From the sequence record PP197160.1: DNA of 43,930 nucleotides; one strand, written 5' to 3'. Below, piece after piece: positions 17,150-17,187 of this stretch; within the stretch, counting starts at the first letter, position 1; every line of letters starts with the position of its first letter. A model generated the notes under the pieces. It was given only the letters and a program-made list of their open reading frames with translations, searched no databases and was not told where the DNA came from. Source of the DNA: Escherichia phage phiHAO78-1. The translations under genes were made by a program, and so were the position numbers.

Positions 17150-17187
17150 AAAAAAAAAGCCCCGGCACCCGAAGGCACCAGGGGCGC
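17150..17187 (-). terminator. Rho-independent-type terminator downstream of the capsid gene
   Basis: Minus-strand RNA GCGCCCCUGGUGCCUUCGGGUGCCGGGGC followed by nine U: GC-rich stem with UUCG tetraloop and U-run. Its position after the major capsid gene parallels the T7 T-phi terminator. Confidence 0.7.

Follow-up and report, generated by a model that had tools for sequence, protein, structure and literature searches.

Transcription attenuation behind the capsid gene follows the textbook logic of T7-type phages, and the type species already carries the annotation. In T7, the annotated terminator Tphi lies at the junction of gene 10 (capsid) with gene 11 (tubular protein A), and it consists of a hairpin followed by a U-run, the class I signal recognised by T7-type polymerases. 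Polymerases must partly read through Tphi for the downstream genes to be expressed, and the locus described here would probably have the same need. UUCG loops are common in intrinsic terminators. Among the KP34-like phages, Eriksson et al. (2015) described a rho-independent terminator common to KP34, SU503, SU552A, NTUH-K2044-K1-1 and F19 (PMC4411677, Table 3), which in KP34 occupies 26623..26660 and reads GCCCCTGGTGCCTTCGGGTGCCAGGGGCT10 (PMC4411677). The KP34 RefSeq record (NC_013649) annotates it at the same coordinates, and the Minorna record (NC_048172) holds exactly one annotated terminator, at 17245..17284, in the capsid/tubular A junction. The promoters of the KP34 RNA polymerase were defined by Lu et al. 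(2019) using 5'-RACE and in vitro transcription; they comprise a strong promoter, T(A/G)ATGTTACAGGAGTA, found at three sites, and one weak promoter (PMC6834552). An analogous promoter layout was established by ONT-cappable-seq in LUZ19, a relative of phiKMV (PMC10914365), and a literature search found no transcript or 3'-end mapping for any Drulisvirus. A separate kind of structure, the intercistronic C(UUCG)G hairpin, is known from the mRNA of phage T4 (Tuerk et al. 1988, as summarised in PMC4371310).

Here, we analyse Escherichia phage phiHAO78-1 (PP197160.1), the window being the whole stretch of 43,930 nucleotides. It is the complete genome of a KP34-like E. coli phage (Drulisvirus, Autographiviridae, Slopekvirinae) in reverse-complement orientation, with every long ORF on the minus strand; we take it to be whole because about 75 nt are common to both of its ends. 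Around the finding, a 6-kb segment matches Escherichia phages ZH5, AV102 and Minorna and Klebsiella phage KPV811 at 92-97% identity, and many KP34-like Klebsiella phages at about 80-84%. The late gene order was confirmed with PHROG profiles (Table 1); counterparts of the 65-aa ORF are annotated as p43 in KP34 and gp17 in Minorna, and the gp16-like gene is the largest of the internal-virion-protein genes. Two UUCG hairpins stand out in this late region, one behind the capsid gene (element 1) and one between the gp15-like and gp16-like genes (element 2, or hairpin 2). With a probability of about 0.72, we read element 1 as a canonical intrinsic terminator acting as a leaky attenuator, equivalent to Tphi, and element 2 as an intercistronic hairpin that works post-transcriptionally.

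Table 1. Positions of the features discussed, in window coordinates
Feature	Position	Strand	Basis or remark
Strong phage promoter copy	43162..43177		Exact match to KP34
RNA polymerase gene	22142..24610	minus	PHROG profiles
Weak phage promoter match	22170..22189		One mismatch
Strong phage promoter S1, TAATGTTACAGGAGTA, just past the RNA polymerase gene; putative start of the head transcript	22121..22136	minus	Exact match to KP34
Two small genes, portal and scaffold, after the RNA polymerase gene		minus	Position and matching KP34/Minorna annotations
HNH endonuclease gene, between scaffold and capsid	18433..18894	minus	PHROG profile
Major capsid protein gene	17400..18419	minus	phrog_267, E = 1.6e-94
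65-aa ORF between capsid gene and terminator; putative last gene of the head transcript	17191..17388	minus	phrog_7403, E = 1.5e-35
Element 1, intrinsic (class I type) terminator	17150..17187	minus	Fold, terminator scan, published annotation in relatives
Tubular protein A leader between U-tract and start codon, 45 nt, near-invariant	17105..17149	minus	Conservation across loci
Tail tubular protein A gene	16544..17104	minus	phrog_446; gene order as T7 gene 11
Tail tubular protein B gene	after tubular protein A	minus	PHROG profiles
Internal virion proteins of 212, 894 and 1232 aa		minus	PHROG profiles
gp15-like gene (894-aa internal virion protein), before hairpin 2	10873..13557	minus	phrog_2083
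Hairpin 2, intercistronic 7-bp c(UUCG)g hairpin without U-tract	10853..10870	minus	Fold, conservation with compensatory changes
gp16-like leader	10824..10852	minus	CCCUUAUCA box 10844..10852, A/U-rich spacer, Shine-Dalgarno AGGAG 10829..10833
gp16-like gene (1232-aa internal virion protein, endolysin domain), after hairpin 2	7125..10823	minus	phrog_342
Strong phage promoter copy, 743 nt inside the gp16-like ORF	10065..10080	minus	Exact match; relative position as KP34 33721-33736

The terminator behind the capsid gene

The initial annotation had placed two UUCG hairpins in the late region, and the sequences and folds show both exactly where it put them. It had further credited the first with a GC-rich stem, a UUCG loop and a 9-U tail behind the capsid gene and the 65-aa ORF, all of which are seen. 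Read along the minus strand from 17187 to 17150, element 1 is GCGCCCCUGGUGCC-UUCG-GGUGCCGGGGC-U9: its stem-loop (17159..17185) has 11 pairs (9 G-C and 2 G.U), a bulged U at 17180 and a C-G pair closing the UUCG loop, and the U9 run (17150..17158) adjoins the stem without a gap. The structure has an energy of -20.9 kcal/mol (z = -3.2), a fold equalled by none of 200 shuffles. It begins 5 nt past the stop codon of the 65-aa ORF, is intergenic, lies on the transcribed strand and is separated by 45 nt from the tail tubular protein A start codon. Element 1 thus combines what defines an intrinsic terminator, namely a stable G+C-rich stem-loop, an uninterrupted U-tract and an intergenic location after a stop codon. 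In the terminator scan it was the top terminator-like site between 7 and 26 kb and the only strong hairpin-plus-U-run in the late region, terminator-like sites as a class being at chance level in that interval (15 found, 13.5 expected). Hairpins with a UUCG loop and a stem of at least 7 bp number two on the coding strand, against a mean of 0.087 in dinucleotide shuffles, only 0.6% of 1000 of which reach two; both carry a UNCG loop closed by a C-G pair (C-UUCG-G). A scan of the whole window against Rfam gave no match at the gathering threshold.

Element 1 and the KP34-like rho-independent terminator share their gene junction, the GCCCCUGGUGCC-UUCG-GGUGCC core and the poly-U run. The 21-nt core is exact in 62 IMG/VR contigs, in one copy per contig, and across 42 IMG/VR loci the terminator varies only at one position of the 3' arm (A or G) and in the length of the T-run (7-12). 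The A/G change converts a U-A pair to U.G and so keeps the pairing in RNA. The window differs in that it has no A/G partner for the sixth stem base, which leaves the U bulged; this base is present in 42 of 42 relatives and only the window is without it. As a consequence the window terminator is weaker by about 5 kcal/mol (-20.9 against -26.5 and -25.8 kcal/mol for the full stems of relatives). Since the window assembly contains aberrant G/C homopolymers, the missing base may be an assembly or homopolymer error. By its sequence, element 1 is a canonical KP34-like terminator, already published and annotated, and the main finding at this junction was in that sense already known.

The homopolymers themselves are runs of C (G on the coding strand) of 16, 11, 9 and 14 nt at 17..32, 41705..41715, 43634..43642 and 43855..43868, respectively. 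The run at 41705..41715 is the sole one that can be matched to Minorna, which has 4 nt there, and its expansion breaks the UACG loop of a local hairpin. These long runs are likely sequencing or assembly artefacts, or else hypervariable runs.

The junction behind the capsid gene can be followed well beyond the KP34-like phages. Tphi, for all its likeness in position and in general form, has no sequence similarity to element 1, and its stem is longer and its loop has 6 nt. Closer in form are phiKMV and VP93, both of which have UUCG tetraloop hairpins at the post-capsid junction with stem sequences unrelated to those of the window. In phiKMV, where a terminator is annotated and the UUCG hairpin precedes it, two hairpins stand in tandem with the U-run after the second; the VP93 hairpin is GGGGAGUGGC-UUCG-GCUGCUCCCC-U6. 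At the same junction, phiKDA1-like phages carry a 15-bp hairpin with a UUAACU loop and a U-run, a Proteus phage a terminator-like hairpin, Caulobacter phage Percy an annotated terminator, and Erwinia phage Loshitsa2, Pectobacterium phage Peat1 and a P. putida phage UUCG hairpins. The post-capsid structure is thus conserved across lineages while its sequence has been replaced.

A second hairpin in the near-invariant leader of tubular protein A, which would occlude the Shine-Dalgarno sequence, was rejected as a candidate, being no better than shuffles (z = -0.5). Two variants found in relatives preserve the pairing of this predicted hairpin.

The hairpin between the gp15-like and gp16-like genes

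The second hairpin had been described initially as perfect and lacking a U-tract, a description that holds. On the minus strand (10870..10853) it reads GAGGCCC-UUCG-GGGCCUC, a perfect 7-bp stem with an energy of -14.1 kcal/mol (z = -3.8), and it lies between the 894-aa gene, which stops 2 nt before it, and the 1232-aa gp16-like gene, whose ATG comes 29 nt further on. The stem runs straight into CCCCUUAUCAAAAUU. When 181 nt are folded, the hairpin forms an isolated structure and the leader that follows it is largely unpaired. The KP34 and Minorna records leave hairpin 2 unannotated.

The hairpin was found in about 65 related loci, reaching as far as the Vibrio VP93-like phages. Drulisvirus members share one stem, and their loop is UUCG, UCCG or UCCA. 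Where the adjacent protein is 62-67% identical, in the phiKDA1-like phages and a related lineage, the form is GGGGC-(UUCG, CUCG or UACG)-GCCCC; another lineage has GGGGCC-GUGU-GGCCCC at this position; and the Vibrio VP93-like phages, with an adjacent protein only 45% identical, have GGGGC-AUUU-GCCCC. Overall, the stems are thus GAGGCCC, GGGGC and GGGGCC and the loops UUCG, UCCG, UCCA, CUCG, UACG, AUUU and GUGU. RNAalifold, run on 12 sequences, predicted the 5-bp core unaided, with 2 compensatory pairs and 0 broken pairs. Across 23 distinct sequences, 86% of the cells are paired (67% in shuffles) and the covariation score is 0.41 (0.14 in shuffles), a score unmatched by any shuffle or slid register. 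The 49-nt segment between the gp15-like and gp16-like genes is 95% identical over 66 loci, compared with 75-84% for the flanking coding sequence and 73% for its third codon positions. Immediately behind the hairpin lies the UUAUCA box, which 23 of 25 diverse sequences keep unchanged, among them two (L114 and L117) without an adjacent hairpin; the Proteus phages have neither hairpin nor box. The hairpin is therefore dispensable in some relatives, since L114 and L117 keep the leader without it and the Proteus phages do without both. A covariance model of hairpin plus box found one copy per genome, at the gp15-like/gp16-like junction only; a pattern search for further copies of the box (CCYTTATCA) stayed at chance level, and a profile-based scan of viral contigs for distant relatives gained only three further lineages. 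On the sequence evidence, hairpin 2 is a real, selected element. What is new here is thus an unannotated hairpin-plus-box at the gp15-like/gp16-like junction, constrained more than the neighbouring genes, and it is a small addition to what was known.

Several familiar classes of signal can be set aside for this hairpin. It was rejected as an intrinsic terminator because the stem is not followed by a U-tract and the terminator scan did not report it. RNase III substrates need roughly two helical turns. Hairpin 2 resembles the RNase III sites of T7 in being an intergenic RNA structure of a T7-like polycistronic mRNA, but its 7-bp stem has no extended double-stranded context and gains no extension in the 181-nt fold, where about 20 bp would be required. 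The T7 class II signal does not account for it either: ATCTGTT is absent from both elements, and its four genomic copies lie elsewhere and are at chance level. What hairpin 2 does present is a stable, stand-alone intercistronic hairpin with a stem under selection, the structure expected of an mRNA stabiliser or insulator of the T4 CUUCGG type, with a logic like that of REP elements. Our best guess, held with modest confidence, is that it acts post-transcriptionally, either as an exonuclease barrier or as a structural insulator for a conserved translation-initiation leader. A barrier role would require a cleavage or a 3' end beside the hairpin. The processing or stability role put forward in the initial annotation is compatible with the sequence evidence.

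Judged by analogy, hairpin 2 fits in with the intercistronic c(UUCG)g hairpins, a kind that has long been known and was first observed in T4 mRNA. Like the T4 hairpins, it is short and very stable, lies between cistrons of a polycistronic mRNA and has no terminator tail. T4 has many such hairpins per genome, whereas hairpin 2 occupies a single locus and its loop in relatives is not always UNCG. The corresponding gene junctions of T7 and phiKMV have no hairpin, and in phiKMV there is no intergenic space at all between gp36 and gp37.

It is possible, if on balance rather unlikely, that the functional unit is the gp16-like 5' leader itself (box, spacer and Shine-Dalgarno sequence), serving as a translational enhancer or as the operator of a regulator, and that the hairpin merely keeps this leader single-stranded and insulated. 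The 95% conservation of the leader, the persistence of the box where the hairpin is absent and the fold, in which the hairpin stands alone beside a largely unpaired leader, would all suit this explanation, as would the varied identity of the loop, which argues against loop recognition. The covariation, however, shows selection on the stem itself, and neither a candidate binding protein nor a second copy of the box came to light. A more doubtful extension is that hairpin 2 and UUAUCA form a lineage-specific control module (a cleavage, factor-binding or pause site) in Drulisvirus, Koutsourovirus-like and Vibrio VP93-like phages. If so, the module would determine how much gp16-like ejection protein is made for each gp15-like one, a step not described for T7-like phages.

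It seems quite unlikely that the hairpin and box constitute a weak, non-canonical pause or termination signal which, by the logic of the T7 class II signals, lowers gp16-like transcription ahead of the internal promoter. The box just 3' of the hairpin is better conserved than the hairpin, the next strong promoter lies about 770 nt downstream, and the class II signal, ATCTGTT with a U-rich stretch, bears a loose resemblance to ATCAAAATTCTTTT. Against this stand the want of a U-tract directly after the stem and the silence of the terminator scan, the absence of ATCTGTT from the site together with its chance frequency in the genome, and the single copy of the box per genome, unlike a general polymerase signal; moreover, full-length gp16-like mRNA must cross the site. 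Our preferred reading of element 2 is the post-transcriptional hairpin. Engineers of these phages should avoid disrupting the hairpin-plus-box at the gp15-like/gp16-like junction.

Promoters, and a proposed mechanism of termination and read-through

The three strong promoters of KP34 all have exact matches in the window (3/3, Table 1). Past the terminator, the sole known phage promoter is the copy at 10065..10080, about 7 kb away; a search for the KP34 strong and weak promoters between 17149 and 10081 gave no match, partial matches to the strong promoter (3 mismatches) occurred only at 25-31 kb, and sigma-70-like sites were at chance level. Promoters of an unrecognised type between 17150 and 10080 are possible. 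The capsid gene has no promoter directly upstream, which places portal, scaffold and capsid on one transcript of about 5 kb. This arrangement departs from that of T7, where the phi10 promoter stands just before the capsid gene and phi13 follows only 3 kb after Tphi: the window has no capsid-proximal promoter and its next one is 7 kb away. Because this next known phage promoter is so distant and sits within the gp16-like gene, read-through would be obligatory and the terminator would have to be leaky. The 10065 transcripts, which start inside the gp16-like ORF, cannot encode the complete gp16-like protein; their role may lie with the tail fibre, terminase and lysis genes. The proposal that element 1 mirrors Tphi and boosts capsid mRNA relative to the downstream genes therefore holds in part. 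Its canonical anatomy, the KP34 and Minorna annotations and the Tphi-like position between capsid and tubular protein A all support the parallel, but the promoter map qualifies the picture of a boost, since no promoter directly precedes the capsid gene and read-through would be obligatory rather than supplementary.

The positions, folds, conservation and covariation of the two elements and the promoter map were observed directly; from them we infer termination, read-through and whatever function element 2 has, in the following manner. Late transcription would start at the strong promoter just past the RNA polymerase gene and produce a head transcript of about 5 kb covering the two small genes, portal, scaffold, the HNH endonuclease gene, capsid and the 65-aa ORF. 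As the U9 run is transcribed, the fast-folding, G+C-rich c(UUCG)g hairpin would form in the nascent RNA and release most polymerases, and the hairpin left at the 3' end of the head-gene mRNA would shield it against 3' exonucleases. A minority of polymerases would read through, and on their transcripts alone would depend tubular proteins A and B, internal virion proteins A and B and the beginning of the gp16-like gene, since no known phage promoter follows for another 7 kb. Element 1 would then be a leaky attenuator whose read-through supplies the tubular proteins, the two internal virion proteins and the 5' part of the gp16-like gene, and which forms a fixed partition between high-copy head genes and low-copy tail and ejection genes. 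In the read-through transcript, element 2 would form a free-standing hairpin at the gp15-like/gp16-like junction, a barrier to 3' exonucleases or a structural insulator, acting with the conserved UUAUCA-containing leader that may govern the translation or cleavage of gp16-like mRNA.

We regard it as very improbable that element 1 is inefficient on the phage RNA polymerase and is mainly a 3' stabiliser after processing, or a terminator for the host RNA polymerase only. The essential downstream genes would all need transcripts that cross element 1, which speaks for such a weak element. On the other side, a hairpin with a U-run is established as a class I signal for T7-type polymerases, and a signal of this kind is kept at the capsid/tubular A junction in every lineage surveyed. 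In addition, Lu et al. expected the KP34 RNA polymerase to stop at the T7 class I hairpin terminator in pUC19 (PMC6834552). Read as a leaky terminator, element 1 is relevant to the annotation and engineering of these therapeutic phages: it would mark the end of the head-gene transcript, and genes inserted downstream of it would be expressed at the read-through level only.

Gene junctions, contig breaks and further hairpins

It is extremely improbable that the two hairpins act as DNA, be it as cruciforms or single-strand hairpins at recombination or module boundaries, as homing-endonuclease targets or as nick sites: what is probably an HNH endonuclease gene lies between the terminator and tubular protein A in about 13 related contigs, the terminator is the exact breakpoint of several assemblies, and the intergenic segments are more conserved than the flanking genes, as recombination linkers would be, but the terminator stem uses G.U pairs and its U-A to U.G variant pairs only in coding-strand RNA, the U-run is strand-specific and on the transcribed strand, and the breaks are more simply explained by poor sequencing through a hairpin and homopolymer.

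The insert in these relatives (about 13, including L002-L004, L006, L008, L010, L012, L017, L024, L028, L035 and L043) is some 460 nt of coding-looking sequence between the terminator and the start of tubular protein A, probably the HNH endonuclease gene that is annotated there in some related records; L042 retains a truncated remnant of it. In Pectobacterium phage Peat1, an annotated HNH gene lies directly upstream of the capsid/tubular A junction. The junctions that flank the capsid gene look like homing hot-spots. Erwinia phage Loshitsa2 has two annotated tRNA genes, for Tyr and Asn (L207, 511..675), in the interval from the post-capsid hairpin to the tubular protein A gene, a junction that corresponds to the place of the terminator in KP34-like phages.

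Contig breaks at the terminator were seen in six or seven near-complete IMG/VR contigs, all from dataset 3300045988, which break at the 3' edge of the hairpin or in the T-run. The corresponding loci are starts in one set (L011, L014, L025, L030, L032, L044) and ends in the other (L225, L227, L237, L242, L251, L269), and in the latter the hairpin lies 26-125 nt from the locus end. One contig broken at the terminator carries an inflated T18. These breaks probably reflect failure of coverage or assembly at a strong hairpin and homopolymer; a physical discontinuity of the DNA is conceivable.

Other hairpins occur elsewhere in the genome. A third UUCG hairpin after the last gene (about 172-192, minus strand, followed by UUUUAUCA) was rejected, since it is no better than shuffles (z = 0.01). 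Two-tier hairpins lie at 40895..40945 and 41680..41740, with a related one at 33280..33325, all on the minus strand. Such repeats were once proposed as KP34 phage promoters (PMC4411677), and Lu et al. found that they do not drive the KP34 RNA polymerase (PMC6834552). Their outer stem of 7-8 bp is compensatory between copies, the internal loop AGCC / GUGAA is conserved, and the inner 10-bp stem bears a c(UACG)g loop; the copy at 40.9 kb folds with -30.2 kcal/mol (z = -5.7). Their design is like that of T7-type RNase III sites or of a hairpin that binds protein, and the early-region copies at 40.9 and 41.7 kb are far closer to the T7 RNase III sites than hairpin 2 is. Stable intergenic hairpins without U-tracts are also found at 27923..27938, 24697..24719 and 43658..43676 (minus, the coding strand), each shortly before the start of a gene. 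Of the strongest coding-strand hairpins, about a quarter fall in the intergenic part, which makes up 6.6% of the genome.
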